IMG/VR virus record: IMGVR_UViG_3300044800_000101
Location: 1 to 25,079 of that record
Reading direction: 5' to 3' (one strand)
DNA: 25,079 nt
Source: a virus
Lineage: Duplodnaviria; Caudoviricetes
A model generated the notes under the pieces. It did not search any database. It worked only from the letters and a program-made list of their open reading frames with translations, and had not been told where the DNA came from. Below, piece by piece: positions 8,081 to 25,079 of the stretch (its first letter is position 1; every line of letters starts with the position of its first letter). The position numbers and the translations under genes are program-made.

Positions 8081-8116
8081 TGGAATGAGGGCTGATCACC
8101 CTCACTCATTCACCCC

Positions 8117-8152
8117 AAACTCTGACTGTGCACAGACGGTCAGAGTTTTTTT
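8117..8152 (+). terminator. Intrinsic terminator upstream of the head genes
   Basis: AAACTCTGACTGT-GCACAG-ACGGTCAGAGTTT stem (one G:U) running into T7. Confidence 0.8.
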
Positions 8153-8166
8153 ATTTCAGGGCGCTC

Positions 8167-8721
8167 ATGAACGAACCGCAATCCTTCTCAGCAGGCGACA
8201 CAGTAACCTGGACCGAGTCACTCGCTGACTATCTCGCAAGCGCCGGCTGGATTCTCAACTACCGACTCTCGGGACCGCAGCAGATCGATCTCATCTCCGT
8301 CGCTGACGGCGATGATCACAAGATCACGATCACGAAAGCCATATCCGCGGACTATGGCGCCGGGGTCTATCAGTGGCAATCGTATGTCGAGAAAGGAACC
8401 GAGCGCTTCACGATCGCCCGCGGCCGAATCGAGATTCTTGCGGACCTGACGCAGGTCGAGGGAACCGCTGAATATGATGCTCGATCGCATGTTCAAAAAG
8501 TATTCGACGCCATCAAAGCGACGATCGAATCCCGTGCCACAAAATCGCAGTCGGAAATTGTCATCGCCGGCCGCTCACTGAAGTATCTCGATCCTGGCGA
8601 GCTGATAACATGGTATCATCATTATGAGGCTCTCGTTAAGCAGGAACAAAATGCCGAACGGATCAACCAGGGCCTCAAAGTGTCCAACAAGATTCTCACT
8701 CGATTCGATTCCATCTCATGA
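8167..8721 (+). CDS. Head-tail adaptor/head completion protein (gpW-position, extended; 184 aa)
   Basis: Between terL and portal; EPQSFSAGDTVTW..YDARSHVQKVFDAIKATIE..IAGRSLKY; ATG 8167 preferred to GTG 8128, which lies inside the terminator. Confidence 0.75.
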   Translation: MNEPQSFSAGDTVTWTESLADYLASAGWILNYRLSGPQQIDLISVADGDDHKITITKAISADYGAGVYQWQSYVEKGTERFTIARGRIEILADLTQVEGTAEYDARSHVQKVFDAIKATIESRATKSQSEIVIAGRSLKYLDPGELITWYHHYEALVKQEQNAERINQGLKVSNKILTRFDSIS

Positions 8722-10274
8722 CCATCAAAGAACGCATCCTGTCCAATCTTGGCCTGGTCTCGAAAAAGCAATTCGATACTCTGCGCCAACAATCGGCCAT
8801 GAGAACGTATGTAGCCGCGCAAGTAAACCGCCTCACAGCGGATTGGACCAGTTATCGTCAATCGATCGATTCCGATGTTCGCATGTCTCTCGTCATCATC
8901 CGTGAGCGAGCCCGCGATCTGGTGAAGAACAACGAATTCGGCCGCGCCTACATGCGCCTCCTGAGCACGAACATCATCGGTCCCACAGGTTTTACACTTC
9001 AGATGGACGTAAAGAATCCTGACGGCACGTCCGACGAGCCGGCGAACGCTCTCATAGAAGACGCGTGGCGGGATTGGTCTGAGCGAAACAATTGCTCTGT
9101 GAGCGGCCAATACAGTTTCCGGGCTGTATGCGATCAGCTCATCAAGTATATCGGCCGCGATGGCGAAGGATTATTGCGGCCTGTATTCAACAAACAGTCG
9201 AAATATGGTTTGCAGACGCAGGTGATCGAACCGGAAGCGCTCGATGAGCAATACAGCACCCTTCTAACCAACGGCAACGTTGTGAAGATGGGTGTTGAAG
9301 TCGACGCGTGGCGAAGGCCGATCACGTATTACATCAGGAAAGTCAATCCGATCAACGAGCTCTATAGCGGCACAAGCGTGGCCCGCGATTACTACAAGAT
9401 TCCGGCGAGCGAACTCATCCATGGCTTCGACCGTGAGTATGTCAATCAAACCCGGGGCATCTCGTGGCTTGTGCAGTCGCTCTTCCGCATGAAACAATTG
9501 AGCGGATATGAAGAGGCTGTCGTCGTAAATGCGCGGGCATCAGCTGCGAAGATGATCTTCCTCACAAGGGCCGCTGACGCGCCGGGCGAAAGTTATACGG
9601 GAACAGACCAGGATGCGGCCGGCAACAAGATCACCTCTATCGAACCCGGGGGAATCGAAGAATTGCCCATAGGCATGAAGCCCGAGCCCTGGGACCCGAA
9701 GCAGCCGACAACGCAGCATGATATGTTCATGCGCACCTCGCTGAATGCTTTTGCGACAGGAGTAGGATTTGCAGCGATGTCGCTCAGCGGAGATCTCTCG
9801 GGCGCCAATTACTCATCCATGCGTGCCGGCCTGTTGCCCGAGCGAGATGCAGCGCGCTTGCTTCAGCAATGGTTCGCGGAAACGTATCTCTATCCGCTCT
9901 TCTCGATCTGGCTTGAGACGGCGATCATGAAGGGCACCATCAATCTGCCGGAGGCAAAATTCGAGAAGTTCAACAAGCCCATCTTTGTCGGCCGGACATG
10001 GGATTGGGTCGATCCGGAAAAAGATACGACTGCGAAAGTGATGGCATTGCGCTCCGGCCTGGCGAGCCCCTATGATGTCGCCGGCGAACAGGGCAAGAAA
10101 CTCGAGCAGATCTACAAGGATATCGCGGATGCAAACGCACTGGCAAAGAAGTTTGGAATTGTGATCGACTGGAGCATTGGCAAGACCGCTGCGCCAGTGC
10201 CGGCGGAGCCGGGCGCCGAGGCGATCCTGAACAAGGCTCGCGAGCTGGTCAAATCAAACAATGGCAGTCACTGA
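8718..10274 (+). CDS. Portal protein, lambda family
   Basis: IRERARDLVKNN, NIIGPTG, MGVEVDAWRRPITY, QTRGISW, LSGDLSGANYSSMRAG, WDWVDPEKD. Confidence 0.95.
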   Translation: MTIKERILSNLGLVSKKQFDTLRQQSAMRTYVAAQVNRLTADWTSYRQSIDSDVRMSLVIIRERARDLVKNNEFGRAYMRLLSTNIIGPTGFTLQMDVKNPDGTSDEPANALIEDAWRDWSERNNCSVSGQYSFRAVCDQLIKYIGRDGEGLLRPVFNKQSKYGLQTQVIEPEALDEQYSTLLTNGNVVKMGVEVDAWRRPITYYIRKVNPINELYSGTSVARDYYKIPASELIHGFDREYVNQTRGISWLVQSLFRMKQLSGYEEAVVVNARASAAKMIFLTRAADAPGESYTGTDQDAAGNKITSIEPGGIEELPIGMKPEPWDPKQPTTQHDMFMRTSLNAFATGVGFAAMSLSGDLSGANYSSMRAGLLPERDAARLLQQWFAETYLYPLFSIWLETAIMKGTINLPEAKFEKFNKPIFVGRTWDWVDPEKDTTAKVMALRSGLASPYDVAGEQGKKLEQIYKDIADANALAKKFGIVIDWSIGKTAAPVPAEPGAEAILNKARELVKSNNGSH

Positions 10275-12333
10275 AGCGAAAGGCATGTCCATGGACAAGC
10301 AATCGTTCCCCGACAAGATCTTGAATCAACGGCACTTTCGGATGTCAACGCTCAACCGTGAGTCAGTTGATATCGAAAAACGGACCGTTGCTTTGTCGTT
10401 CGCCTCTGAAACTCCCGTCGAACGATGGTGGGGATTTGAGATCCTGGACCACAGCCCCGAGATGGTTAATCTCACCCGCTGGCAGAACAAGCCGCCCTTC
10501 ATGGAAAACCATTATACCAGGCGTGGCGTGATCGAGAATGGTGCGATCGTCGATCGCCAACTCGTCGGTACAGCACGGCTCTCCCGCAATCCCGGCGCCG
10601 AGGAGCTCCTGCGAGATATCGCCGATGGCATCGCCGTCCACACATCGAACGGCTATATAATCCATGAAGCCCGGGAGATGAAGCCGGAGGAAATGAGCCC
10701 CGAGCTGAAAACCAAATGCCTCGAGGAAGGTTTGAAGGCTTATCGATGCAGCTGGGAGCCGATCGAGGGGTCCAGCGTCGATATCCCCGCCGATATCACG
10801 GTCGGCCTGGACAAACGCGGCCTCGATTTCTACGACCTCGATGATATCTCCGATGTGACAAAGATTGTTCAAGCGATTCGAAGTTTCATTCCACCCTCAA
10901 ACCCCGCAGACAGTTCACTTGGCGCGGGAACTGAGGCCATTCCACAACCTTCCATCAGAATAAAGGAGGCAACAATGGAAGAACTTACAAAAACACTTCT
11001 CGCGCCGCCCACGGCAGAAGAGCTGCTCAAGATCGAGAATGCGAGGGTTGCAGAGATCACGGCGATCGGGACCCGCTTTGCGGACCGCATCACCGGCGGC
11101 AAGGCGAAGATGGACCAGCTCACGAAAGACGCCATCGAGCTGAAGCGCTCTCTGGAGCAGTTCCGGGGAGATGTCTATCTCCGCGTCAATGATTCAAAAC
11201 CGTTGGAGACTCCGCAGTCGTTTCTCGGACTCTCTGACAAGGAAGTCAAGCGGTATCGGATGCGCAATGTCGTCCTCGCGCAGATGAAACGGATTGAGCC
11301 GAACCTGACGGATGTCCATGGCAACAAGGTGGATACCGGATTCGAGGAGGAATGCTCCGCAGCGCTCGACAAGACGGTCGGACCGGCATTCCGCGGCGGC
11401 CTTCATGTCCCGTATGACATCCAGGCCCGGGAAATGGCTGTCAGCCCACGGCAGATCGAGGAGCTCGATCGGGTGCTCCGCCAGTTCGGAATCGCCCGGC
11501 GAGATCTCACTGTCGGTGCCCAGCATGCAGCTGGCGATTTGGTCGGGACAACGCTCATGGGCGGATCGTTCATCGAGCTGCTTCGCAACAAGATGCTGGC
11601 GTTCCAGCTCGGCGTCAAGCGGATGACGGGTCTCGTTGGAAACATCGCAATCCCGAAGCAGACCACGGCCGGCACGTTCTACTATGTCGCCGAGAACACA
11701 GCTCCTGCCGGAGAGTCTGCAATTGTCACCTCACAGGTGACAATGACCCCGAGGACGGGTGGGATGTATATGGATTACAGCCGTCAGCTGCTGCTCCAAT
11801 CGACGCCCAGCATCGACATGCTCGTTCAGGATGACATCGCGCAGGAATGCGCCCTGGGAATCGACAAGGCCGTGTTCCATGGATCCGGTGCTCCTCAGCC
11901 GACGGGCATCGTTGGCGTCAATGGCGTCGGCTCGGTTTCCGGTGCAGGCTTTGGCTGGGAGCAAGCGGTCGAGTTCGAAACCGACGTTGCGTCAGCCAAC
12001 GCGGACGTCGCAACGATGAGCTACGTGATGGGCGCTGCAGCCCGCGGAATTCTGAAAGGCCGTCTGAAGGCTCTCAACACTGCCGAGTTCCTGATTGACA
12101 GGGATCAGCGGATGAACGGCTATCCGGTCAACGTCACGAACCAGATCGACGCCGGTTACATTTTCTTCGGCGACTGGGCTCAGGCAATCGTCGGAGAATG
12201 GGGATCGCTCGACATCCTGGTCGATCCTTATACTGGCGGATCTGCTGGCACAATCCGTGTCCGGGGCTTCGTCTCCTTTGACGTCGCAGTCCGTCATGCC
12301 GGTGCGTTCAGTATCTGCTCAGATCTGAGCTAA
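10261..12333 (+). CDS. Fused HK97-type prohead protease and major capsid protein
   Basis: N-terminal RTVALSFASETPVERWWGFEILDH..MENH..TSNGY..PIEGSSVDIPAD; C-terminal SFIELLRNK, YSRQLLLQST, FFGDW, DILVDPYT, DVAVRHAGAF. Start may be 10285 or 10291. Confidence 0.93.
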   Translation: MAVTEAKGMSMDKQSFPDKILNQRHFRMSTLNRESVDIEKRTVALSFASETPVERWWGFEILDHSPEMVNLTRWQNKPPFMENHYTRRGVIENGAIVDRQLVGTARLSRNPGAEELLRDIADGIAVHTSNGYIIHEAREMKPEEMSPELKTKCLEEGLKAYRCSWEPIEGSSVDIPADITVGLDKRGLDFYDLDDISDVTKIVQAIRSFIPPSNPADSSLGAGTEAIPQPSIRIKEATMEELTKTLLAPPTAEELLKIENARVAEITAIGTRFADRITGGKAKMDQLTKDAIELKRSLEQFRGDVYLRVNDSKPLETPQSFLGLSDKEVKRYRMRNVVLAQMKRIEPNLTDVHGNKVDTGFEEECSAALDKTVGPAFRGGLHVPYDIQAREMAVSPRQIEELDRVLRQFGIARRDLTVGAQHAAGDLVGTTLMGGSFIELLRNKMLAFQLGVKRMTGLVGNIAIPKQTTAGTFYYVAENTAPAGESAIVTSQVTMTPRTGGMYMDYSRQLLLQSTPSIDMLVQDDIAQECALGIDKAVFHGSGAPQPTGIVGVNGVGSVSGAGFGWEQAVEFETDVASANADVATMSYVMGAAARGILKGRLKALNTAEFLIDRDQRMNGYPVNVTNQIDAGYIFFGDWAQAIVGEWGSLDILVDPYTGGSAGTIRVRGFVSFDVAVRHAGAFSICSDLS

Positions 12334-12370: not shown

Positions 12371-12395
12371 GCGGGGCCATTGTTGCTGGCCCCGC
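12371..12395. other. GC-rich hairpin after the capsid gene
   Basis: GCGGGGCCA-TTGTTGC-TGGCCCCGC; A-run on the 5' side (U-tract only on the minus strand). Confidence 0.75.
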
Positions 12396-12426: not shown

Positions 12427-12621
12427 ATGGCAGAGAAGATCATCAAAGCCAAAATCATCTACAAGTGCCGGTTCAACGGCCAGCATAAGGTCCCGGGCGA
12501 TATCATTGAAGGTCCGGAGACCGAGATTAAATATCTGTGCCAGATCAAGCGGGCAACGGAGGATCTGAAGTGGGAACCCCCTGTGAAGAAGGAAGAGAAG
12601 AAGAAGGAAGAGAAGAGGTAA
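12427..12621 (+). CDS. small post-capsid protein (64 aa, Lys/Glu-rich tail)
   Basis: AAGGAG SD before ATG 12427; FNGQHKVPGDIIE motif typical of small genes that follow major capsid genes. Confidence 0.75.
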   Translation: MAEKIIKAKIIYKCRFNGQHKVPGDIIEGPETEIKYLCQIKRATEDLKWEPPVKKEEKKKEEKR

Positions 12622-12698: not shown

Positions 12699-13202
12699 AT
12701 GAAAACAACTGGCATTCTTTTGATCGCCGTCCTGGCGCTGGTGGTGCTCCTGCCGTCGGGCCTGACAGCACAGCAATCAGCGACGCCAACGCTCGCCAAC
12801 ACGCTTTACTATTATCGCCTTGCAAACGCCAGGCAATATGCAGCTTCCCAGGTGGACACGCTGCCGCATCCACTTGCCGCAGGGACAATCGTCACGTTCC
12901 GCGGGGCGCCATCGATGGCTGCAATCAGAATCGCTGCAGCGGATTCGTGCACGGTGGGAATTGTAGTAAAAAGACGGGTGATCGGTGCAACGGCATGGAC
13001 AACAGTTTTGACGGACAGCTTGGCTTCGGCCGCAACGATCATACCTGCGAAGGAATTCGTCCTGCGCAACCATGCAACCGATAACATCATTGACCTAGGC
13101 GTCGAATACTTCGTAATCGCATCGTTCAGATCATGGTGCAATGGCGATGGAGGCAAGCCGTCGACGAAGAAATACACACTCGACTTTCTCTGGAAACCTT
13201 GA
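12699..13202 (+). CDS. Signal-peptide-bearing beta-rich protein (167 aa), possible decoration protein
   Basis: GGAGG SD; MKTTGILLIAVLALVVLLPSGLTA|QQ Sec-type leader; located between capsid and neck genes. Confidence 0.75.
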   Translation: MKTTGILLIAVLALVVLLPSGLTAQQSATPTLANTLYYYRLANARQYAASQVDTLPHPLAAGTIVTFRGAPSMAAIRIAAADSCTVGIVVKRRVIGATAWTTVLTDSLASAATIIPAKEFVLRNHATDNIIDLGVEYFVIASFRSWCNGDGGKPSTKKYTLDFLWKP

Positions 13203-13211
13203 GAGGTCCGC

Positions 13212-13517
13212 ATGTCCGAACTCCCCATCCAGCCGGTTGACGAGTTTTTCAATGAGGATCTCTGTGTCGAGGCGCTTTTCACGCCCGAGGCCGGAGATCC
13301 TCGGGTCATTCTGGTCATCTTCGATCGCCAGTCCTCCGATATCACCCTTGCCGGCATCGGTGTGGAGAGTGCAAAGCCCCAGGCAACCTGCAGGGATATC
13401 GACATTCCGGATGTGACGCACGGCTGCACGCTCACGATCGGGGGAGAAGATTGGTCGATCATGGACACCCAGCCGGATGGAACGGGCATCACGGTTCTCA
13501 TACTCACACAGGCATAA
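13212..13517 (+). CDS. Head-tail joining protein (lambda gpFII-like)
   Basis: 101 aa; VIFDR..TLTIGGEDWSIMDTQPDGTGITVLIL pattern; synteny; GAGG SD. Confidence 0.8.
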   Translation: MSELPIQPVDEFFNEDLCVEALFTPEAGDPRVILVIFDRQSSDITLAGIGVESAKPQATCRDIDIPDVTHGCTLTIGGEDWSIMDTQPDGTGITVLILTQA

Positions 13518-13520
13518 CAG

Positions 13521-13976
13521 ATGTCGCTTCCGCCACTCAAACGGACCCTGATTCGCGACCAGCTTGAGACCGTCCTGAAGACGATCGCTGCCGGAGTATC
13601 GTTCCATACGAGCCTCGGAAGCAGCGTGCATGTCTGGCGGCCGGTATCAGACAAGTTCGAGGACAATGAGATCCCCGGCTGCAACCTGATGGACCTGAAG
13701 GGAAACGTGCTGAACGAGCAATCCGGAGGGAGCACCAATCGCTGGGTAAAGCAGGCGGCGTTTCAGCTCTCCATCGTGTGTCGTGACATTCAGACGTATG
13801 ACAAATGTGTGGCAGATGTTTATGCAGCGATCGAAGCGGATGCGACACTGGGCGGACTGGCGATCGATGTGACAAGCGAGGGAGATGAGATCGATGTGGA
13901 TGAGGAAGAGCAGACCGTGATCGGTGGCAAAGTATCGCTCATAGTAATGTATGACACGAACCGGATGGAGATCTGA
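13521..13976 (+). CDS. Tail terminator-like protein (gpU position)
   Basis: 151 aa, acidic; RTLIRDQLETVL..VYAAIEADATLGGLA; synteny. Confidence 0.7.
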   Translation: MSLPPLKRTLIRDQLETVLKTIAAGVSFHTSLGSSVHVWRPVSDKFEDNEIPGCNLMDLKGNVLNEQSGGSTNRWVKQAAFQLSIVCRDIQTYDKCVADVYAAIEADATLGGLAIDVTSEGDEIDVDEEEQTVIGGKVSLIVMYDTNRMEI

Positions 13977-13978
13977 GC

Positions 13979-15856
13979 ATGAAAACTCTCATACGTATCG
14001 CAGCTGCTCTGGTCCTGCTCGCCCTCGTGGCGGGCGGTTCGCTATATGCCCAGCCGGTCCCGCTCTGGTACACCCAGGGCGACACTCTCAAGGCGACGAT
14101 CACGAAGCAGTGGCTGACATTCGGCAAGGTTGCAATGAACCGGGATGGAAGGATCTATTCGAACGGCATGCTTATCGCATTCGGATCCTCTCAAACATAC
14201 ACATCTCAATTCCGATTCACCAATACCAGCAGTTACTTCGCCGGCGATACCGCTTACTTTAATCACTATCTCGGCAACGGTGTCGGTCTGATGTCTCTCA
14301 ACGCCTCGAATATAACCTCTGGCACAGTCGGGTCTGCCTACATTAATGGTAATTATTCGAGCCAGACACGATGGCTGAATGTTGCCAATGACTATTTCGG
14401 GGATACGGTGAATGTCAATTATTTGATCGGCAATGGAGCCGGCATCACTAGCATCCTGCATCCATCGGATACGGCTTCCCTGCTTCTTGGCAAAATTCGC
14501 GCATCCGAAATATACATCGCCAACGGCCAAGCAACGGCATCGCTTGGCGGACTCGTCCCGGCTCTTCCATCTGGTCAGCATGGTTGGTTGAAATACAACG
14601 CCAATGCTCCGGAGAGCGGGACCCTAAGAACAGCTGGAGCGGCAGACACACTTGACTGGCAGGCGAACATGCTCCCGCCCGTTCCGTTGGATATGAGTGC
14701 GGTGGACGTGACAAGGCAGGCAAGTGCGGTCTTTGATGGTATTGGGGCTACAAGGGCGGTTGTCTCGCTCCGATTCGATGACGGCACAAAACTAGATAGC
14801 AGTTTCACATTCCGGCAACTGGTCTCGAGAAAATTGGTTGGTGGCTTTGCCATCATAGCGAATAGTATTGGGACAGCAGGGAACTTGACTTATGCTGACC
14901 TTCAAAACATGCAACTGAGTGGTATGGAGATTATGGATCATAGCTACTCACATGCTACTGCCAGTAGCTACAATCTTGCAGATTTTTTAAAAGAGGTAAA
15001 GGATTCAAAGGACAGCCTTGAAGCTCACTCATTGTTTGTTCAGCATTTTGTTGCTCCTGGGAGCTGGTCTGGCGAGTTGTTGCTCAACACTGAAGCAAAA
15101 GCAAGAAACAAATATGCCACAATGATCAAATCAATATATTCAACATCATCAGCATACCTTGCCACTAATGAGTATACAGGATTGCCAGCCGCAAGAAAGC
15201 ATTTTGTTGGTCATCGTCCAGGGTATTCATTCACTGTTGCACAAAATCTCACAGAGGTTGATAATGCAATAAATGGGGGATATGCTGTTGACCTTCTTTT
15301 CCACTCGGCTGATTTCGGAATAGGTGGCAACATAGACACGACGAATTTCAAGAAGTTTTTGGATTCCCTAAAAGTGAGAGTTGATAGTGGTTTAGTCAAA
15401 GTCCTGACTCCGACAGGATCACTCTATGCAAAATACGGAACTGCATCAACCAATTACCTCTATGACGGAAATTTTGAACTTTCTCAGACTGGAAGCTGGA
15501 AGGGTTGGCAAGCCGTTGGTGTTCCGAAAGACACCGCAGCGGGGATCACCGGGAATTGTGCGGAGACGGGTCCATCAAATTATTTGCTGGCCTATTTTCC
15601 GGGAAATTCATTTCGGACTGTCCGTTTTGTTGGCTATGCTAAACGTGCCTATGGGATATCCAACGCAGAGGTGCATGTCGGGTCTACGTCAGAACTGTTT
15701 CTGAATTATACCACACTTAATGCATCCACATGGACAAAAATTGAGTTTACATTCACGATCCCCCCATTAACGACAACATCTACTTTCTACATAAGTCTCC
15801 GTCCGAGTTCTACTGGATGGGTATTGTGGGATAACCTGAGTCTCACAAAAGAATAA
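13979..15856 (+). CDS. Signal peptide + fibre-like repeats + CE4/NodB polysaccharide deacetylase + CBM4/9-like domain
   Basis: Leader ..GGSLYA|QP; repeats YLGNGVGLMSL and LIGNGAGITSI; CE4 motifs LRFDDG, EIMDHSYSH, FVAPG, LLFH; C-terminal YDGNFE..WTKIEFTFT..LWDNLSL. Confidence 0.8.
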   Translation: MKTLIRIAAALVLLALVAGGSLYAQPVPLWYTQGDTLKATITKQWLTFGKVAMNRDGRIYSNGMLIAFGSSQTYTSQFRFTNTSSYFAGDTAYFNHYLGNGVGLMSLNASNITSGTVGSAYINGNYSSQTRWLNVANDYFGDTVNVNYLIGNGAGITSILHPSDTASLLLGKIRASEIYIANGQATASLGGLVPALPSGQHGWLKYNANAPESGTLRTAGAADTLDWQANMLPPVPLDMSAVDVTRQASAVFDGIGATRAVVSLRFDDGTKLDSSFTFRQLVSRKLVGGFAIIANSIGTAGNLTYADLQNMQLSGMEIMDHSYSHATASSYNLADFLKEVKDSKDSLEAHSLFVQHFVAPGSWSGELLLNTEAKARNKYATMIKSIYSTSSAYLATNEYTGLPAARKHFVGHRPGYSFTVAQNLTEVDNAINGGYAVDLLFHSADFGIGGNIDTTNFKKFLDSLKVRVDSGLVKVLTPTGSLYAKYGTASTNYLYDGNFELSQTGSWKGWQAVGVPKDTAAGITGNCAETGPSNYLLAYFPGNSFRTVRFVGYAKRAYGISNAEVHVGSTSELFLNYTTLNASTWTKIEFTFTIPPLTTTSTFYISLRPSSTGWVLWDNLSLTKE

Positions 15857-15938
15857 AACCAAACTGTCGGCTAGGATATCGTTAGAAAGTATAGATAGAG
15901 ATTCCACCAATCCCCCACACATTTTCAAAGGAGTCACC

Positions 15939-16406
15939 ATGCAACGTTTCCCCCTTCTTCTCATCGCCGCCCTTTTGATGGCCACAATGATGCTCACAGC
16001 ACAAACTCAACCGGTCCCGATCGTCCCGGACCTGCATCAGCTGGACCAGGCTGTGAAGGCATCGAAGAAGCATCCAGAGCTACAAGCACTGAAAGCCAAA
16101 TGTGATTCACTCCAGCAACTCCTGGAATCCGTTCATTTCGGCAAGACTGCACTGAAGGCCGACGCTCAGAACAAGGCAATTTTCCATGACACAACCGGCG
16201 GCCGCTACGAGCGGAAGGTCCTGATGATCGGTCCGGATGGCAACTATGTGAGCGATGACAATCAATTACTGCTCCGGATCCCCTTCGGTTTGCTCACGGA
16301 GAATCGGCTCTCATTGATCAAGCAATTCGTGCAGATGTGGAGTTCACTCGATCAGACATTAAGCGATCAAATCAAGCTCCTCCAACTACAGCGTGAGGTG
16401 AAATAA
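15939..16406 (+). CDS. Signal-peptide-bearing coiled-coil protein (155 aa)
   Basis: AAGGAG SD; MQRFPLLLIAALLMATMMLTA|QTQ; heptad-rich segments. Confidence 0.75.
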   Translation: MQRFPLLLIAALLMATMMLTAQTQPVPIVPDLHQLDQAVKASKKHPELQALKAKCDSLQQLLESVHFGKTALKADAQNKAIFHDTTGGRYERKVLMIGPDGNYVSDDNQLLLRIPFGLLTENRLSLIKQFVQMWSSLDQTLSDQIKLLQLQREVK

Positions 16407-16410
16407 ACCA

Positions 16411-16554
16411 ATGGAAGACACTACTCCAAATCGGGTCACTCAGACCGTTCGGGATCCCGGCACCGGCAATCTCGTCGAGACTCCTGAAAAGTTTGAAGAG
16501 CCCAAACCACTTGAACAGCCGAAGGCTGAGGAGGCGATAAATGCTAACCCGTAA
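16411..16554 (+). CDS. small pre-tail-tube protein (47 aa; not in the ORF track)
   Basis: Hand translation MEDTTPNRVTQTVRDPGTGNLVETPEKFEEPKPLEQPKAEEAINANP; GAGGTG SD; overlaps the tube start. Confidence 0.6.
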   Translation: MEDTTPNRVTQTVRDPGTGNLVETPEKFEEPKPLEQPKAEEAINANP

Positions 16555-17482
16555 AGAAGTCTTCGGAGCAAAAACAGAAGCCGCCCAGAATACGCCTGAA
16601 ACGCTCGCCGCAACCGACTTTATCAACGCCTGGGATATCGAGTTCAATCCGGATGCGGAGCTCCTCGAGAAGCTGTGGCATTCTAGTTCTCTCGATGCAT
16701 TCCCGTCCGGCCGTGGCAAACTGCACTATGAGCCGAAGGTGAAGACGGATATCAAACCCTCCGGAGTGGTCGCCACGCCCCCCGTCATAAGTCCTCTACT
16801 CCAGGCATGCGGGTTGACGGAAACGATCGTCGGCGCCACAAGTGTCACCTATGCACGGACATCGGCTCCGGCATCTGCAAGTTACCTGGGACCCGGCAAA
16901 TCTGCGACGCTGAAGGCCTATCAAGACGGGATCCTCCACGTCGTTGCCGGTGCGATCGGAAGCAGCAAGCTGATCTTCGAGCCTGGGAAGACTGCAGTTG
17001 CCGAATGGGATCTGAAGGGGCTCTGGGCAGCCGTCACAGACGCAGCGATCCCGGCAAACACGCCGGATACAGTTGCACCTCCGAAGGTGCAATCGATGGC
17101 CGTCTCAGTTCACACCTTTACGCCGATCGTACACAAGCTCGAGATCGACCTGGGCAATGAGGTGGTCGAGATTCCGGACGTGAACAGCATCGCCGGCATC
17201 AAAGGCTACAAGATCACCGGCTGGAAATCGAAGGTGAACTTCACTGTCGATGCAACGCTTGTCGCAACGCATGACTGGTTTGGCAAGCTGGCCGCCGGCA
17301 CAACCGGGGCGCTCACATTCGCAATCAACAATGGCGCTGGCAAGATCATGACCGTGACGCTCGCAGTCGTCGAGTATCAGAAGGTGACAGCGGTGGATGT
17401 AAACGGCATGAGGGCGTTCCAGGTTGAAGCTGCCATTGTGCGCAACACAGGAGACGATTCGTTGGTAATGGCATTCACCTAA
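16541..17482 (+). CDS. Tail tube (major tail) protein
   Basis: 313 aa; GAGGAGG SD; SPLLQACGLTET..SVTY, LEIDLGNEV; directly upstream of the chaperone and tape measure genes. Confidence 0.8.
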   Translation: MLTRKEVFGAKTEAAQNTPETLAATDFINAWDIEFNPDAELLEKLWHSSSLDAFPSGRGKLHYEPKVKTDIKPSGVVATPPVISPLLQACGLTETIVGATSVTYARTSAPASASYLGPGKSATLKAYQDGILHVVAGAIGSSKLIFEPGKTAVAEWDLKGLWAAVTDAAIPANTPDTVAPPKVQSMAVSVHTFTPIVHKLEIDLGNEVVEIPDVNSIAGIKGYKITGWKSKVNFTVDATLVATHDWFGKLAAGTTGALTFAINNGAGKIMTVTLAVVEYQKVTAVDVNGMRAFQVEAAIVRNTGDDSLVMAFT

Positions 17483-17535
17483 GATGTAGAAGTCTCAATT
17501 CACAGCTCTCCAATCATTATTGAAGGGATTCCCCC

Positions 17536-17973
17536 ATGATCATCGCCTTCGATGCAAACCAAAAGCGACAGTTCTATCTGAAAGCCGATGAGAAGAAGGC
17601 CTCACCGTTTCTCATCGGCGTTCTTGATTCCGCACTCGCTTCCCATCTGTCAGACAAAACAATCCTATACAAGCGATCGGGAACGGACAATCTACGTTCC
17701 GCCGATGCTGTAATCAACAGCCACTGGCATGATAGGGAAGTGGTGCGGTTTGGCCTCAAAGGCTTTCCGACGGACTTCAAGACAAAAGACGGATCCCCGG
17801 CCACGTTCGAGATAAAGGAGTTCGATGTGCTCGAGGTGGGAAAGCGCACCGGACTCACAGACGAATCGCTCAATTTCGTCAAGCCCTTTATCGCCGAACT
17901 GGCCGATGCGATCGAAGAAGACAATACTATCACGGAGAAAGAGGAAAAAAACTCCGTGACGTCATTGACATAG
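17536..17973 (+). CDS. Tail assembly chaperone (gpG-like)
   Basis: Between tube and tape measure; ends ..ITEKEEKNS with a slippery site. Confidence 0.8.
   Translation: MIIAFDANQKRQFYLKADEKKASPFLIGVLDSALASHLSDKTILYKRSGTDNLRSADAVINSHWHDREVVRFGLKGFPTDFKTKDGSPATFEIKEFDVLEVGKRTGLTDESLNFVKPFIAELADAIEEDNTITEKEEKNSVTSLT
17946..17952 (+). other. Programmed -1 ribosomal frameshift site A AAA AAC
   Basis: In-frame X XXY YYZ heptamer; the -1 frame is open from here to 18233. Confidence 0.85.
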
Positions 17974-18233
17974 CGCTGGATCCAGCGCTGATCAATGGCG
18001 GAGGTGTTCTCGAAGACGAACAGGGAAGACGCCCGGATCCCGACGAGTTGAGGGAAAATCTACAACGGTTCAAGACTCTTGTCGAATATCTGTTCGATTT
18101 TGAAAACGGCTGTATCACACTCTCGCATACTGAATACTTCACACTGCCGGCAGTGCTGACCAGCGCTCGCCGGATCTTCAGATCAGAACTCGCTGACTAT
18201 CGAAAGAAACAAGCTGATGGCGCCGGTCATTGA
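17952..18233 (+). CDS. gpT-like C-terminal extension of the chaperone (frameshift product gpGT, 17536-18233)
   Basis: -1 frame reads LRDVIDIALDPALINGGGVLEDEQGRRPDPDELRENLQRFK..GAGH; includes track ORF 18048-18233. Confidence 0.75.
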   Translation, partial: LRDVIDIALDPALINGGGVLEDEQGRRPDPDELRENLQRFKTLVEYLFDFENGCITLSHTEYFTLPAVLTSARRIFRSELADYRKKQADGAGH

Positions 18234-19863
18234 ACTCGGGATGGATCTAAAGGATGAAGCGACTGCTACCTGGAATCGCTTTGTCGGCGAGGTAGAGTCC
18301 GGATCGAGGGCTATAGACCAGCATGCACAGAGCACAAACAAACTCACCCAGTGGATCCGTGATCAGCGGGTAGAACAACGCCAGCAGACATTTCTCTTCC
18401 GTGAAGGTAGGAATGTCGTCGACGCCGTGGGTAATTCGACCAGGATGCTGACCACTCAGTATGGCGCTCACTCCGCAGCATTAGCGAAAGTAAATACGGG
18501 ATTGATGTCCGGATTCGCATCCTTCCAGGCAATTGATTTCACGATGGCATCGCTCGGTGTGAGCACGGGCGGAACAACTCTCGCCATAGCCGGTCTCGTA
18601 GCCGGTGGCACTGCTTTATATGCATTCCTGGATCAGACCGAAGCTCACGCAAAGAACGCAGAGAAGGGGATCAAGAACCTCGAAGGGACACTCGTCGGAC
18701 TCGGTCAGAAGCAGATTGAGGGACTCCGGTCTCAAGCGCTTGCTGAAATCGAAAAAACGAAGAAGGCAATGAAGGATGCCAGCCCGACTCTGTTAGGAGA
18801 CAAGCCGCTCATCGAGCTCTTCTTCCCGACAAAAAACCAGAACTCACTCGATCAAACGCTGAAATCGCTTCAGGCTCAGGTCGGTCTGTATGATGCAGCA
18901 CTGAAGCCGGCTGAACAACTGAACTTGGAGGAGATGCAACGCATTGAAGGGCTCGACAAGGAGATTGCATTACTGAAGGTGCATGGCACGATAACGGAAA
19001 AGTATCTCGGACAAGAGATCGATTATGAGCGTCAGCGTATGTTTTATATCCAAGGTAGTTCAGAATTGTCAGCACACGAATTGGATCTGATGCGACAACG
19101 CCTCGAGCTCGTCAAGCAGAATCTGGTCCAGGATCGTGCTATGGCAAATCTCCGGGAGGGAAAGACTCTCCAAAGTGCAACCGACAAAGCCATCGAAGAT
19201 CAATTCCCGGAGCTGAAGGCACTCAGAGAACTCGATAAAACGTGGGCCAAGCTCCCAACCGCGGTGAAGGCGTTGATCAACAAGCGGGATGCCTCTAAGA
19301 TGATGTCGCCGTTTGATCTGAAGAAGGAAAATCTAAGCAACGAAGATCCCTTAAAGCAGATGACAGACAACATCGAGGTATTTGATGCTGGATGGCAAAG
19401 GGCCCTCAATGCTGTGGATCAACTGGCTCAGCAGACCGCAAACGATTTCTATGACTACTTCTCCGGGAATGTAGCCAAGGTCGATGATCTATTCAAGAAC
19501 CTTGTCAAGGATGTCGGTGACTCCTTGGTGAAGATGGCGTTCCAGCTCGCCTCGCAAGCACTGTTCTCGCAATTGCTCGGATTTCTTTTCCCGGCAATTG
19601 GCTTTGGCGGGTTCTTCACGGGCATCGCAGGTATAGCCACAGGTGCACTGGGCGGAGGTGGCAAATCTACCACTATATCGGATGTTCGTACTCCGGAAGA
19701 TCGGGCAAACTCAGGCACGACGATCATATTCAACAATCATGCGCCAATGACCTCGCAGGAAGCAATCCTGGACGCACTCAGTGGCATTGTGCGTGCAACC
19801 GGCCAGACGATCGACAAGATTGCTGTAAACAGCCGAGCGAACGTCTCACTGGCCGCTTCCTAA
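18217..19863 (+). CDS. Tape measure protein (short, 548 aa)
   Basis: Follows G/GT; DLKDEAT N-terminus, long helical content, two hydrophobic Gly/Ala-rich segments, C-terminal TTIIFNN. Confidence 0.75.
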   Translation: MAPVIELGMDLKDEATATWNRFVGEVESGSRAIDQHAQSTNKLTQWIRDQRVEQRQQTFLFREGRNVVDAVGNSTRMLTTQYGAHSAALAKVNTGLMSGFASFQAIDFTMASLGVSTGGTTLAIAGLVAGGTALYAFLDQTEAHAKNAEKGIKNLEGTLVGLGQKQIEGLRSQALAEIEKTKKAMKDASPTLLGDKPLIELFFPTKNQNSLDQTLKSLQAQVGLYDAALKPAEQLNLEEMQRIEGLDKEIALLKVHGTITEKYLGQEIDYERQRMFYIQGSSELSAHELDLMRQRLELVKQNLVQDRAMANLREGKTLQSATDKAIEDQFPELKALRELDKTWAKLPTAVKALINKRDASKMMSPFDLKKENLSNEDPLKQMTDNIEVFDAGWQRALNAVDQLAQQTANDFYDYFSGNVAKVDDLFKNLVKDVGDSLVKMAFQLASQALFSQLLGFLFPAIGFGGFFTGIAGIATGALGGGGKSTTISDVRTPEDRANSGTTIIFNNHAPMTSQEAILDALSGIVRATGQTIDKIAVNSRANVSLAAS

Positions 19864-19876
19864 CCATCAATCGACA

Positions 19877-20131
19877 ATGAGATTCTCCCCCACATCCAAG
19901 TTCATCTCAATCGCCAAGGGCGCCGCGAAGGTTATGCAGTGGAAGGTGTACTGCAAGAAGACGGCAAATCTCGATGAGGCATTGAGTACCGGGACCTGGA
20001 TCGATTGCACGACACGAGTCCATAGCCTGCCACAGATCCGCTCGAAGGTTGAATACCAGCTGGGCCAGTTCACATCACCTGGTGGGACAATACCGTCTTC
20101 AACACTTCCGCCGGCCAGAACATCGAGTTGA
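19877..20131 (+). CDS. N-terminal part of tail tip/hub protein (probably frameshifted from the next ORF)
   Basis: WIDCTTRV..IRSKVEYQLGQFTS resembles hub-protein N-termini; the last 17 aa look out of frame. Confidence 0.5.
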   Translation: MRFSPTSKFISIAKGAAKVMQWKVYCKKTANLDEALSTGTWIDCTTRVHSLPQIRSKVEYQLGQFTSPGGTIPSSTLPPARTSS

Positions 20132-22254
20132 AGGTCCAGCTGCAGATTGGACTCTCCGAAACAGATCTTGCAACGGATGTGGTCGAGGCCTTCTCCGGAT
20201 GGGTCGATCCACTCTCCATTCAATTCAACGAGATCGATGATACGCTGACGCTCACAGCCTATTCAGCTGACGAGCTTGCCAACAGGATGACAGCTGAGGG
20301 GCTTGTCACGCGATATATTAACTCGAACGTTGATGGCTCAGGCAATCCGGGTCTGTTCTTGATGAAGATCTCAGGTCTTTATGCGACGGATGCCAATATC
20401 ACATCTTATGTTCTCAAGCCTGGCGTGCACACCGTGACTTTCGACGGATCCGGGACGCCGGCAAAGGCGAAACTGGACGATGGCGAGTATGTGGATCTAA
20501 GCGTGGGACCGGATTTCATTCTAGAGAACAAAGACAATACCGAACAGCTGAAGGTGAGGGTCAACGGAACGCTATCAGTCGATGCCAATTTGCAGCAATC
20601 TGTCATCGTGATCAACGCCGGCGACACGCTTCCCTATACGTGGTACTCTTCGATCTGGATCAAACGATTCCTCTCGCAGGCCTTCACACAGATAGGTCTT
20701 ACCTCGCAGGTATTCGACACGACACAGATCGCATCCTATGATGGAAACGCCTATCTCTCCTTCCTGGATATTCCTCCTGGGGATGATGCATCTATGGGCG
20801 AGGTACAGGCTTCTGCTTGCATGAGCGACAATACGATCTTCGTTGCCGTCGGCTCAAAGGTCTATCAGAGAGCATACACCTCCGACGTCTATACCCTTCT
20901 CGGGGATATGGGAGCCACAGTCGATCGGCTCTTCGCCGATGAGACAAATCATTGGCTCTGGATCGTCTATACCGGTGCGCATGAGAAGGTAAAAGTATGG
21001 GACCTGGTGGGCCTCTCGCTCTCAGCGGAATGCGATACCGGCCAGTTCGCAAACGTGAATACAATCGACGTCTTGCCATCGAATCGATGCCTCGTTTATA
21101 TCTCCAACACAATTCAGACGGTCTATCAGCTGAAGTTCGACGGATTGAACTTCACCCAAAAGGCCATTTATGCCAAAGCAGCTCTCACGCCGGCATTCGA
21201 TAGCCTCGGAACATGGGGAAGAGTTAAACGGGGTGGATCCGAGCATTATTTTTTCAATGGGGAATCAGGTGGAACCAAATATATCCATTATATCAGCTGC
21301 GGCTCAGGAGTTTGGTCCGACGGTGGAAACCTCCATGCCTATACCGATGAATTCACCTATGGTCTCTGGAGCGACGGCGAAGGCAAGGTCTACTATTGGG
21401 ATTCACCCAACAAGCGGGTGAAGTCAGTCACATCGTCGGCAGAAGCCGTCGTCGCCACTCTGAGTGTGGACGACGTCATTGATATGTTCTACTCTCCCGA
21501 TCGAGGGACGGGATACTTCTGTTCAAATGGCTCGCTGTACTCGATATCGGGCGGAGCTGCAACGGCGATCGTCAGTTCCGGCATGTATTCAAATGGAACG
21601 AATCTGATGGCAAATGCCACCGTCATTTTTGGAATCACGACTGGCCGCCGGCTTTGGCAGTATGGAACCATTCTTGCTCAATATATCTCCGAGCCGGATT
21701 GCACGGGCATCACCATCAAAGCAGCGCTCAACAAAGCTTGCCAGGCGTTCAACTTGATGTTCTACGTGAGTAGCATCAAGGCGGCGTACGTGTATCGAAG
21801 GGGGAACGATAGCGGCACACCGCAAACGTCTGGCAACAATTTGACAGTCAACGCAGATATCGCCAGCAACCTGTCGAAGGAAAACCTTTACGGCAAGGCG
21901 TTCGATCTGATCTCGATCGACAACAGCGTCGAGAAGCATACCTATGATGGCTCATCAGGTCCCGTCGTCTTCGATAAGGGAGTTTTCGGCGACAAGCGGA
22001 CCCTCACGATAAGCAATGACTGGATCCCAACGGAACTGATCAAGCATCTTCTCTTCTGGATGTGGCAGTTCTTCAAAACCGATCGGTCGCTCATCCGGAT
22101 CCCCCTGGGCATCGTGCCGCTCTTCCAGTATGAGATTATGGATCAGTGCACAGCCAGCTTCAGCACGAGCAAGATCGGCACGACAGGATCCGGGCCCATT
22201 ATGGGGCAGACGTTGTATCAGAACGGGTCGATGGACCTGGAGGTATTGACATGA
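20128..22254 (+). CDS. Tail tip/baseplate hub-like protein with central beta-propeller-like region
   Basis: 708 aa beta-rich; FSGWVD..TLTLTAYS and ALNKACQAFNLMFYV hub-like segments flank blade-like repeats. Frame is open from 20053. Confidence 0.65.
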   Translation: MKVQLQIGLSETDLATDVVEAFSGWVDPLSIQFNEIDDTLTLTAYSADELANRMTAEGLVTRYINSNVDGSGNPGLFLMKISGLYATDANITSYVLKPGVHTVTFDGSGTPAKAKLDDGEYVDLSVGPDFILENKDNTEQLKVRVNGTLSVDANLQQSVIVINAGDTLPYTWYSSIWIKRFLSQAFTQIGLTSQVFDTTQIASYDGNAYLSFLDIPPGDDASMGEVQASACMSDNTIFVAVGSKVYQRAYTSDVYTLLGDMGATVDRLFADETNHWLWIVYTGAHEKVKVWDLVGLSLSAECDTGQFANVNTIDVLPSNRCLVYISNTIQTVYQLKFDGLNFTQKAIYAKAALTPAFDSLGTWGRVKRGGSEHYFFNGESGGTKYIHYISCGSGVWSDGGNLHAYTDEFTYGLWSDGEGKVYYWDSPNKRVKSVTSSAEAVVATLSVDDVIDMFYSPDRGTGYFCSNGSLYSISGGAATAIVSSGMYSNGTNLMANATVIFGITTGRRLWQYGTILAQYISEPDCTGITIKAALNKACQAFNLMFYVSSIKAAYVYRRGNDSGTPQTSGNNLTVNADIASNLSKENLYGKAFDLISIDNSVEKHTYDGSSGPVVFDKGVFGDKRTLTISNDWIPTELIKHLLFWMWQFFKTDRSLIRIPLGIVPLFQYEIMDQCTASFSTSKIGTTGSGPIMGQTLYQNGSMDLEVLT

Positions 22255-23012
22255 GCTATCCTCGCTTCTACGCCGGCGACCTCGCCGGAAATGTCTACAC
22301 GATGAGCCTGACGGAAGATGCCAACTATCCGCTCTCCAATCTCTCCACGTATATCCCGACGGATGAATGGCGCAGTTCCGCCAACACAAACAGCCAAACA
22401 CTCAAGATCGATTTTGGAATTGCTAAAGCGATCGACACGCTTATTCTGGACAGTCACAATATCAACCTGATGACACTCACAGCGCTGCAGTATGATGCAA
22501 CTGACAATCCGTCGTTCGCCATTCCGGTATCTGCTATCGCAGAGCTGCAAGTGTTCAGTCCAACGGGTCTCATCGACAAGTTTGAATTCAATTCGGTAAG
22601 AAAGCGCTACTGGCGGCTTCTCTTCTCAGACACAAACACTCTGGTCCCGCGGATCGGACAGATCTTTCTCTCGGGAAAGTTCGATGCTGCGCAGCCCTAT
22701 GATGAGGGATACCGGGGAGGGAACAAGCAGCACGAGACTGAAGTGCAGAAGTCACTCTCCGGAGTGGAGCGGGCCAGCCAGGCATTCGCCGGCAAGACAG
22801 TCTTTGAGATCTCGTTCAGCATTGCCGGCGAGACCTTCCGGACGAACTGGATCGCATTTCACAACAAGGTCCGTGGCAAATTGTGCCCGTTCTATTTTGC
22901 CGATATGGATGATGCAATCTACCTGGTCAAGTTCGAGCAGGATTACAACCCGGCCGAGACGATCCGGTATCAGGTCAATAACGTGCAAACTGTTACGCTG
23001 CGAGCACAATGA
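22251..23012 (+). CDS. Distal-tail-like protein with discoidin/CBM-like N-half, copy 1 (253 aa)
   Basis: GGAGG SD, ATGA overlap; EWRSS..QTLKIDFG..RYWRLLF..RIGQIFL; C-half VRGKLCPFYF. Confidence 0.65.
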   Translation: MSYPRFYAGDLAGNVYTMSLTEDANYPLSNLSTYIPTDEWRSSANTNSQTLKIDFGIAKAIDTLILDSHNINLMTLTALQYDATDNPSFAIPVSAIAELQVFSPTGLIDKFEFNSVRKRYWRLLFSDTNTLVPRIGQIFLSGKFDAAQPYDEGYRGGNKQHETEVQKSLSGVERASQAFAGKTVFEISFSIAGETFRTNWIAFHNKVRGKLCPFYFADMDDAIYLVKFEQDYNPAETIRYQVNNVQTVTLRAQ

Positions 23013-23836
23013 CGCCACGCTTCTATATAGGCCAACTCGACAAGATAACGTTCACGATGACGGAGACGGAGAATGCTGCCGGACCCCTCTCAAATCTGAA
23101 GACCTATTTTGCCGATTATGTCTGGTTGAGCTCCACGATTGCAGCCAACCAGCGATTGATTCTCGACTTCGGCGAGGACAAGTATTGCGACTTCTGCATT
23201 GTTGAGAACCACAACTTTGCAGCGATCGGCGCCGACAGCGTGCAGCTGCAGTGTGCAGACGATGCGGCCTTCACGGTCAACGTCGTCACCGTTTCGTCAG
23301 GCCTTGCCACGCTTGGGAGTCCGGGCAAGATCGAGTTTACCGGGCAGACGAAACGATACTGGAGTATCCTCTTTGCGAAGGCTTCCGGACTGCTTGCGGC
23401 GATTCCGCAGATCGGCCAGGTCTTCGTCAATAACAAGTTTGAGGTCCTGAATGGATATAATCACGGCTACCGTGCCGGCAACACAGAGTATCAGACGGCA
23501 GTGAAGCGCAATCTCAACGGCATCGAGCTCGGTTATCAGGCCCATGGCGGCCGCCTTGTATTCGAGTTTCGCTTCAGTAAGCAGAATGAGGATTTCAAGA
23601 CGAACTGGATCAGCCTGCAGAATTCCGCCCGGGGGCGTCTCAATCCATTTTATTATTGCGATCCATCGGATGGCGCCTGGTATGTGCGGCTCACTGAAGA
23701 CTATGATCCGGTCCGGACGCTTGCGAAAAACAATCAGGAAACGGAAATGATCAAACTCCGGACCGTCGGCGATGTCTCCGCAACTCCACACGGCTGGGGA
23801 GAGGATTTTGGCGGAGACTTTGGGGGAGGATTCTAA
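23009..23836 (+). CDS. Distal-tail-like protein, copy 2 (275 aa)
   Basis: Full-length paralogue of 22251-23012 (PRFY, PLSNL.TY, L.DFG, KRYW..LF, IGQ.F, GYR.GN, RG.L.PFY); ends WGEDFGGDFGGGF. Confidence 0.65.
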   Translation: MTPRFYIGQLDKITFTMTETENAAGPLSNLKTYFADYVWLSSTIAANQRLILDFGEDKYCDFCIVENHNFAAIGADSVQLQCADDAAFTVNVVTVSSGLATLGSPGKIEFTGQTKRYWSILFAKASGLLAAIPQIGQVFVNNKFEVLNGYNHGYRAGNTEYQTAVKRNLNGIELGYQAHGGRLVFEFRFSKQNEDFKTNWISLQNSARGRLNPFYYCDPSDGAWYVRLTEDYDPVRTLAKNNQETEMIKLRTVGDVSATPHGWGEDFGGDFGGGF

Positions 23837-25079
23837 ATGAAACGATTGCTTTATGTCCTTTTGTTTGGCGCTCTCGTAACTGATCTCTTCAGCCAGGCTG
23901 TTCCCATCGGTTATACGTGCTATTACGGGGTCCCGAAATATGCCCAGGGCGTAAGCCCCGGGGCAGATTCTCTCAATCAGGCATGGGCTGAACGGATCAC
24001 ACATGCGATCCGCTTTCCGGTCGCCAGTTACATCGATTCGTTGCTGCAGTATACAGAATCCGCCTCCCGTCCCATTTGGCTTGGCACTCGGACGCTTCCC
24101 TGGCTGAAATTCTATCGAGACTCTCTTGCATGGTATTTTGGCGGCGTTCAGCGCATGGCAGCAGACCGCAATGGCCTGTACATCGGTGGCAACGCCCCAC
24201 CAACGGCGCTTATGGACCTTGCTCCTGGAGACAGTGCAGCCGGACTTCCTCCGGTCCGGGTGCGATCGTCCTCCCATGGATTGCCGGCGAGTCCTCTCGG
24301 CGGAACCCTCTGGAACACCGGCATCTATCTTCTCTATGTTCGGGATTCAGGCGCTCCCGATACTCTCAATAAAGCGAGCATCCTTTCGGTGCCCATTGAT
24401 ACGAGCCTTCTTGGGGGCACAAAGTATCACAATCAAGCGCAGTGGACTGTTGCGGCGTTGCCTGATTCAATATTGGTCAAACCGACACGCATAGAGTTGG
24501 CGGCACTTCTCGGAGCAAGAATTTCAACCTGGACGGCTGGGAACGGGCTGCTTCAGAACTTCATCACAGGAGCAATCACGGCGAGGCTTGACAAGTCCGC
24601 AATTGATAGTATTGGCGCGGTGATATCCGGAAGCATTTCCGGTCTGACAATAACGGGGGGCACGTATCGTACGGCATCGAGCGGAAAAAGAATTGAGCTC
24701 GCTTCAAGCGGCGACCTAAGTGGCTACTACTCCACGGGTGCGCTTTCGGGAGGTATGATCATTGGAACTGCGGGAACCAACACCGAGTTTTGGGCTAACG
24801 ATCAGCTTCGCTTAACTGGATACTCAATTTATCTCAACAGCGCCACCACAGCCCAGGTGAATGGTAGTGCAATAATCACGGCCGCGACAGTAGGTTCGAT
24901 GGCGTATGTGGATTCGGGTAAGTTTCACGGCTCTCCTAGTATCAATACATTGGGCGCGGTGATATCCGGAAGCATTTCCGGTCTGACAATAACGGGGGGC
25001 ACGTATCGTACGGCATCGAGCGGAAAAAGAATTGAGCTCGCTTCAAGCGGCGACCTAAGTGGCTACTACTCCACGGGTG
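23837..25079 (+). CDS. Signal-peptide-bearing tail-fibre-like protein, 3'-truncated (>414 aa; not in the ORF track)
   Basis: ATG directly after the previous stop, open to the window end: MKRLLYVLLFGALVTDLFS|QAVPIGYT..; GLYIGGNAPPTALMDL and ISGLTITGGTYRTASSGKRIEL are fibre-like beta repeats. Confidence 0.8.
   Translation, partial: MKRLLYVLLFGALVTDLFSQAVPIGYTCYYGVPKYAQGVSPGADSLNQAWAERITHAIRFPVASYIDSLLQYTESASRPIWLGTRTLPWLKFYRDSLAWYFGGVQRMAADRNGLYIGGNAPPTALMDLAPGDSAAGLPPVRVRSSSHGLPASPLGGTLWNTGIYLLYVRDSGAPDTLNKASILSVPIDTSLLGGTKYHNQAQWTVAALPDSILVKPTRIELAALLGARISTWTAGNGLLQNFITGAITARLDKSAIDSIGAVISGSISGLTITGGTYRTASSGKRIELASSGDLSGYYSTGALSGGMIIGTAGTNTEFWANDQLRLTGYSIYLNSATTAQVNGSAIITAATVGSMAYVDSGKFHGSPSINTLGAVISGSISGLTITGGTYRTASSGKRIELASSGDLSGYYSTG
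24614..25079. repeat. Exact 127-bp direct repeat (24614-24740 = 24953-25079), period 339 bp
   Basis: GGCGCGGTGATATCC...TCCACGGGTG occurs twice, in frame (113 codons apart); the second copy is cut by the window end. Confidence 0.95.

Follow-up and report, generated by a model that had tools for sequence, protein, structure and literature searches.

Sec-type leaders on candidate decoration and fibre proteins in the late region of an uncultured lambda-like siphophage

RESULTS

Four leader-bearing genes among the structural genes

The 25,079-nucleotide (nt) contig analyzed here in its entirety (IMG/VR record IMGVR_UViG_3300044800_000101; hereafter the window) belongs to an uncultured phage, and its sequence is present in peat metagenome runs; no RNA runs carrying the contig are listed. 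The window encodes the late region of a lambda-like siphophage. Set among its leaderless terminase, head, neck and tail genes are four genes, here termed A, B, C and D, whose products begin with a Sec-type leader followed directly by Gln (Table 1). A preliminary description of the sequence had pointed out these four genes and proposed that the phage exports decoration and fibre parts to the periplasm and completes the virion at or after lysis. All four open reading frames (ORFs) are indeed found where it placed them, on the plus strand, in frame and with the leaders it described. The structural slots it assigned are likewise borne out: A follows the major capsid protein gene and a gene for 64 amino acids (aa), B and C lie between the tail terminator and the tail tube, and D stands behind two distal-tail-like paralogues. 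Its statement that the four are closely packed with their neighbours is true for one side of each gene only and not for both, as the upstream gaps are 77, 2, 82 and 0 nt for A, B, C and D, respectively, and the downstream gaps of the leader genes are 9, 82 and 4 nt. No promoter or terminator above chance was found flanking A–D on the plus strand, although the promoter type of the host may differ.

Table 1. Features of the late region. Sequons are matches to the Bacteroidota O-glycosylation motif D-S/T-A/I/L/V/M/T. Chaperones, tape measure, hub-like and distal-tail-like genes are named from position.
Feature	Position	Strand	Remarks
A, 167 aa	12699..13202	+	Sec leader 1-24, Gln25; one jelly-roll domain; D-S/T sequons conserved at D53, D82 and D106
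B, 625 aa	13979..15856	+	Sec leader 1-24, Gln25; 9 sequons
C, 155 aa	15939..16406	+	Sec leader 1-21, Gln22; 2 sequons
D, at least 414 aa, 3' open	23837..25079	+	Sec leader 1-19, Gln20; 7 sequons; 113-aa (339-nt) unit repeated in tandem
Terminase small and large subunits	5188, 5810		Leaderless
Head-tail joining gene	8167		Leaderless
Portal	8718		Leaderless
Protease-major capsid protein fusion	10261..12333	+	HK97 fold family; leaderless; A presumably binds to it
64-aa gene	12427..12621	+	Leaderless; separates capsid gene and A
Head closure and tail terminator genes	13212..13976	+	Leaderless; flank A and B; starts at 13212 and 13521
Tail tube, presumed chaperones, presumed tape measure, hub-like gene, two distal-tail-like paralogues	16541..23836	+	Leaderless; tail tube starts at 16541

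Leader peptides and Gln at position +1

Leaders were called with a rule of our own that looks for a basic n-region, a hydrophobic h-region and small residues at -3 and -1. By this rule 4 of the 32 window genes are leader-bearing, all with Gln at +1, and the cleavage contexts (slash) are GLTA/Q25 in A, SLYA/Q25 in B, MLTA/Q22 in C and LFS/Q20 in D. When fake starts were drawn from the other 28 proteins, 59 out of 5410 scored, none of them with Gln; the probability of finding at least 4 leader-bearing genes out of 32 is ~4e-4 even if Gln is ignored. The mature chains of A–D have no membrane-spanning stretch (maximal 19-residue hydropathy 0.8-1.5; the C-terminus of D is missing), and no lipobox was flagged in any of them.

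The preliminary description had suggested looking at the leaders of syntenic homologues. There, leader sequences diverge, while leader character and Gln at +1 are kept. Among the six closest homologues of A (55-78% overall identity) not a single position within residues 1-24 is invariant, yet Gln25 is. Leader character is retained over ~100 A-family sequences at 21-44% identity while the leader sequence itself turns over, and Gln occupies the +1 position in 105 of the 107 aligned members. In all 13 other phages located through the capsid gene or a mature-region motif, that is, independently of the leader, A has a leader. The 103 full-length representatives comprise 92 with a leader and Gln, 5 with a leader and a different +1 call, and 6 that were unscored. 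The latter look truncated or mis-started, and no in-frame leaderless version was found among them. Judged by this pattern of conservation, the leaders of the A family appear to behave as working signal peptides.

In Bacteroidota, cleavage by signal peptidase I (SPI) after Sec export, pyroglutamate formation and O-glycosylation at D-S/T act on non-cytoplasmic proteins. The preference for Gln after the cleavage site (Q-rule) has been documented in Bacteroidota; in Ignavibacterium album it amounts to 77% (PMC5837995).

O-glycosylation sequons

The sequon is a mark of non-cytoplasmic glycoproteins (PMC12871550). The mature chains of A–D contain 20 sequons versus 4.5 expected, a number reached in none of 2000 shuffles, whereas the 28 leaderless window genes contain 20 versus 20.4 expected. 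Five control motifs show no enrichment in A–D. Related phages follow the same partitioning: 20 leader proteins carry 80 sequons (23.7 expected) and 22 leaderless virion-region proteins carry 27 (32.3 expected). In the 103 A-family representatives there are 292 sequons against 72 expected. The best-kept positions in the 107-row alignment of this family are Gln25 (105 sequences), D53-T54 (104 and 102), D82-S/T83 (106 and 106), R123 (98) and D106-S/T107 (85 and 101).

The sequon excess may thus be read from the sequences as a second, independent, sign of export, namely a periplasmic signature. Taken together, divergent leaders that keep Gln at +1 and a sequon excess confined to the four leader proteins strongly support the export proposed in the preliminary description, and we regard Sec export of A–D as very likely. 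The same features suggest that the host is a Q-rule, sequon-using cell of the Bacteroidota/Ignavibacteria type; a narrower assignment would go beyond the evidence. The 27 loci returned by a GTDB scan have capsid genes that are only distantly related (29-39% identity), and no Bacteroidota-type host is among their sources. The Bacteroides-type promoter motif TAnnTTTG, which occurs once on the plus strand (8075), was rejected as a host marker because in 8 of 9 relatives it is absent within 400 nt upstream of the corresponding gene.

Protein A is a candidate capsid decoration protein

The A family was compiled by a profile search that yielded 110 representatives; removing 5 short fragments and 2 long, unrelated proteins left the 103 full-length ones. 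A separate scan with the mature-region motif gave 84 stretches, 6 of which were confirmed as A by a hidden Markov model, 3 of these being in new phages. A has no match in Pfam, NCBIfam or PDB sequences; PHROG gave just 7 single weak matches among the 107 family members, no Bbp16 match turned up in the scanned members, and neither A nor D matches any of 50,697 phage records. The Atlas features for A reach a best score of 0.88, to unnamed viral clusters.

The AlphaFold2 model of A is of good quality when based on the 107-row alignment (predicted local distance difference test, pLDDT, 89.7; predicted TM-score, pTM, 0.76) and replaced an earlier one from 14 rows (pLDDT 65). It is made up of the leader helix plus a single jelly-roll. 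In Foldseek searches of PDB and BFVD, the matches were all generic beta-sandwiches. The top structural matches were XepA (Z 10.8, root-mean-square deviation 2.5, 103 residues aligned), PirA (Z 9.4) and then many generic jelly-rolls. Among the matches are two small, single jelly-roll cements: Bbp16 of Bordetella phage BPP-1 (PDB 3j4u_H, PF21190; Z 7.2, 109 residues aligned) and the cement of Helicobacter phage KHP40 (7dou_4; Z 7.3, 113 residues aligned). According to the model, the fold of A permits a cement role without proving it.

The position of A is more telling. In all 14 distinct phages A adjoins the capsid gene or is one small gene away from it, after it in 12 and before it, between the portal and capsid genes, in 2; most relatives have a small gene of similar size in the place of the 64-aa gene. 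In each of the 11 loci measured, the distance between the stop of A and the start that follows is within -4 to 9 nt. One relative, L009 (L numbers denote loci of related phages), has two A-family genes in one head block, the first (1324-1758) before the joining gene and the second, diverged copy (3939-4391) between the portal and capsid genes.

Leaderless Bbp16-like cement was found in 15 other loci, none of which carries A. Fourteen of the 15 are capsid-region loci, where the cement sits beside the capsid gene in the slot of A. In a quick capsid tree (51 of 99 rows, the L053 row disregarded), the cement phage L014/L015 falls among the A phages (support 85). Bbp16 and KHP40 cements are leaderless; A has a Sec leader, Gln at +1 and conserved sequons, and its sequence or profile similarity to them is not significant. 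Because the leader is present throughout the A family, we class A, from its sequence, as cement-like rather than as a member of the Bbp16/KHP40 cements. We consider A a candidate exported capsid decoration protein of the cement slot.

In L001 a leader plus Gln gene of another family (1246-1761) lies between the joining gene and the portal. L113, with a tail type like that of the window, has four leaderless decoration- or fibre-like genes (1243-3534) after the capsid gene instead of A; it nevertheless carries leader-bearing proteins at the tail end. Assignment of A to the XepA/YomS type, which is a tandem jelly-roll pentamer of a lysis cassette, was rejected: A has one domain only, and its gene belongs to the head block.

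Protein D and the tail end

At its end D has an exact 127-nt repeat whose copies are spaced by 339 nt, and the contig closes within a collapsed tandem repeat (24614-25079). Because read depth at this terminal repeat is ~40 versus 9 elsewhere (about 4-fold), D likely holds some 4-5 copies of the 113-aa unit, and the assembly likely broke within it. No relatives of D were found in the loci of related phages or among cultured phages, and its PHROG match is weak only. Leader plus Gln proteins do, however, occupy its slot in all three relatives that cover it. In L110 there is one repeat protein directly behind a BppU_N adaptor gene, in L114 four proteins (with tail repeat, pectate-lyase-like and Ig regions) and in L113 three. 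D is a repetitive protein of fibre-like character, possibly an auxiliary fibre.

Proteins B and C

B combines a polysaccharide deacetylase domain (259-361) with a C-terminus resembling carbohydrate-binding module (CBM) families 4/9. Its N-terminal domain of ~75-95 residues recurs in L002, where a fibre-like protein with the same leader type fills this slot; the two are 55% identical over 100 residues. Beyond this N-terminus they are unrelated, with deacetylase and CBM in B and a tail-repeat region in the L002 protein; this modularity is seen in these 2 phages only. A region search with the N-terminal domain recovered B alone among 51 candidates of 343-1094 aa. In Arthrobacter phages, proteins that the deacetylase matches bear the annotation minor tail protein. 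From these features B may be a neck- or tail-associated deacetylase fibre. In most relatives the slot of B is empty or holds a leaderless gene.

C has neither relatives nor a usable match, and its model is poor, so that no fold was assigned. C is unlikely to be a spanin: its site looks cleavable, and L110 has a separate spanin-like gene in its lysis block. A tail-tube scan found nothing. Because of their patchy occurrence, the low GC content at third codon positions (GC3) of B and the lack of relatives or a fold for C, we treat B and C as accessory; they could have a non-virion role. The decoration or fibre identity that had been suggested for the leader proteins therefore divides. It is strengthened for A (jelly-roll, cement slot, mutual exclusion with leaderless cement) and for D (tandem repeats, fibre slot), is weaker for B (patchy, modular in 2 phages) and finds no backing for C.

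DISCUSSION

A possible two-compartment route

The usual view of tailed phages is that all their parts are built in the cytoplasm. Decoration proteins and fibres join last and can bind finished particles in vitro, as known for lambda gpD, T4 Hoc/Soc and the P22 tailspike. The features of A–D could be reconciled with this order as follows. Capsid, neck and tail would be built in the cytoplasm from the leaderless proteins. A and D, and with less certainty B and C, would be exported by the Sec route to the host periplasm, cleaved before Gln and then O-glycosylated there. Since capsid and tail assembly is cytoplasmic, A and D, if virion parts, would reach the particle only after the inner membrane fails; they would dock onto finished particles once lysis opens it. 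Many copies of A would then cover the capsid, acting as glycosylated cement or decoration, and, decorations being late additions, A would not be needed during DNA packaging.

We lean slightly towards docking of the leader proteins onto the virion at or after lysis, more so for A and D and less so for B and C. An analogy comes from a cultured phage. In Cellulophaga phage phi18:3 (GenBank KC821620), gp085-gp087 are annotated as 'structural protein, MS/MS' (tandem mass spectrometry, MS) and have leaders with Gln at +1; overall, 3 of 12 translated MS-annotated proteins of this phage have both. Like A–D, these proteins combine a leader with Gln at +1; they come from a Bacteroidota phage and have a structural annotation from MS/MS, and they may serve as a cultured precedent and, by analogy, as the sole direct support for virion completion at lysis. 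They also differ from A–D: phi18:3 belongs to Pachyviridae, gp085-gp087 are unrelated to A–D, 547-785 aa long and located outside the main structural block, and the record is silent on the leaders. The complete scheme, in which exported cement and fibres become capped with pyroglutamate, are coated with host O-glycans and attach at lysis, without a phage glycosyltransferase and in Bacteroidota-type hosts, is put forward tentatively; it might well be correct, but we would not stake more on it than on its opposite.

A number of observations weigh against virion docking or against the evidence for it. In phi18:3, gp085-gp087 show no sequon excess (1 each versus ~3 expected), and MS detection in a virion preparation can mean co-purification. 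The profile that yielded the 110 A representatives included the leader, so this set is biased to leader-bearing matches. The jelly-roll of A is generic, with the cements ranking only 34th and 46th among its structural matches, and profile comparison (hhalign) of A with the leaderless cements gave probabilities of 4.5 and 10.2, which are not significant. The mutual exclusion of A and cement is partly kinship, since most cement loci are distant; the tree that places L015 among A phages is a quick one in which the support of 85 is not starred, and L001 has neither A nor cement. The conserved Asp-Ser/Thr pairs of A could have a structural or metal-binding role. At the tail end, the tip block of L110 includes a leaderless 292-aa gene that could be the actual receptor binder. 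Besides the window, L002 alone has B in its slot, C is confined to the window, and the low GC3 of B (0.48) fits an accessory gene.

Alternative roles of the exported proteins

The foremost alternative, which we consider unlikely though deserving attention, is that A–D derive from decoration and fibre genes but act, once exported, in the envelope or periplasm of an infected or lysogenic cell, in the manner of lom and cor, and never become part of the virion. Receptor masking and superinfection exclusion fall under this alternative and share its low probability. Export signals and sequons would suit any host-envelope protein equally well, the occurrence of B and C is patchy, and GC3 is low in B, whose deacetylase could edit host surface sugars. 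Moreover, Matrishin 2023 (PMC10367356) reports five Q-rule genes of unknown function in Porphyromonas gingivalis prophages and reads them as host outer-membrane modifiers. These resemble A–D in being phage genes with Sec/SPI leaders that obey the Q-rule; in the part of the source at hand, no link to virion slots is drawn, and one of the products is a 144-aa unknown (supplement row). Patchiness and odd composition are true of B and C and not of A. However, A is coupled to the next structural gene in every locus measured and remains beside the capsid gene even when switched to its other side. No promoter or terminator above chance was found around A–D on the plus strand, and the mature chains have no membrane anchor, so that nothing obvious would hold them on the cell surface.

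It might also be argued that export of A–D takes place late and that they wait in the periplasm until lysis sets them free as soluble helpers, for instance as decoys, enzymes that edit sugars or aids to lysis like XepA, which would not bind stably to the particle. The lack of anchors and the enzyme and carbohydrate-binding module of B agree with this. The best fold match of A points the same way and thereby away from a virion role: XepA of Bacillus subtilis PBSX (PDB 6i56), a jelly-roll like A, is an exported late protein of a prophage, and according to section 4.2 of PMC6834076 it belongs to the lytic cassette and is absent from the mature phage. Yet XepA is a two-domain pentamer, while A is single-domain, linked to the capsid gene in the head block rather than to a lysis cassette, and takes the slot of cement. 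The D-slot proteins have tail-fibre repeats, one of them behind the BppU_N adaptor gene. On balance we find free release improbable. That the leaders are relics or unused, with A–D remaining in the cytoplasm and assembling conventionally, is very hard to reconcile with leader character and Gln at +1 being kept across a family whose leader sequences turn over, with a sequon excess in leader proteins only, and with no in-frame leaderless A having been found.

Relation to known systems

Filamentous phage pVIII and pIII and lambda Lom, Bor and Cor use the Sec route of the host, and lom and cor are located among tail genes. The filamentous coat proteins are membrane-anchored and assemble during extrusion, whereas A–D are anchorless and belong to a tailed phage with lytic assembly. 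Lom and Cor reside in the host envelope as membrane proteins; A–D again differ in having no anchor. The parts encoded in the window are thus of known kinds (a cement-like jelly-roll, fibres, a deacetylase), and it is their routing that differs.

We found no account of Sec-exported or periplasm-matured virion parts of tailed phages, although most subscription journals were outside the search. Signal peptides are not mentioned in the available part of a Cellulophaga phage proteomics paper (PMC13288928). A figure in a Salinibacter virus paper (PMC5776456) marks both signal peptides and MS-detected proteins and may bear on the question. Elsewhere the absence of signal peptides has been used as a sign of phage origin (PMC6199706).

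What is new here is a large and well-modelled family in the cement slot whose best-conserved residues are host processing signals. The host cleavage rule and the three host sequons of A point to maturation in the periplasm and, possibly, to virions glycosylated by the host. The likely gain would be a host-glycan coat and blocked N-termini on exposed parts, with sugar-binding or sugar-editing parts kept from assembly until release. If the two-compartment route is real, the virion would wear host sugar without a phage glycosyltransferase, the annotation of secreted phage proteins would change, and there would be a reason for outer parts being added last.

Other features of the window

The hub-like gene (19877-22254) is split into 84-aa and 708-aa ORFs, while in L005, L012, L014, L056 and L113 it is one ORF of 800-970 aa. 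Because 28 additional letters are present in runs X2 and X3 at 20074, within the split gene, the split is probably an assembly error rather than a programmed frameshift. The two tandem distal-tail-like paralogues (22251-23836) are 37% identical; L012 has a single copy. The gene in the head-closure slot, 101 aa in the window, is internally duplicated or greatly extended in relatives, where it reaches 206-406 aa (L002, 7907-8527; L004, 3456-4250; L005, 7462-8682; L006, 3334-4137).

The gap before the head-tail joining gene (8032-8167) contains a promoter-like stretch and a 13-pair hairpin with a T run (8117-8148), and several relatives have similar TTGACA-like boxes or hairpin-T runs upstream of this gene. 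We consider the gap a candidate late promoter with antitermination. Directly 3' of the capsid gene there is a GC-rich 9-pair hairpin (12371-12395), which is terminator-like on the minus strand. Near the start of the window, a 564-aa P-loop ATPase-like ORF (113-1807) has a coiled-coil middle and a weak terminase PHROG match, and an 89-aa ORF of low-complexity Gly-Tyr-Gly-Asp repeats (3051-3320) lies immediately 3' of a DUF6948-like gene.

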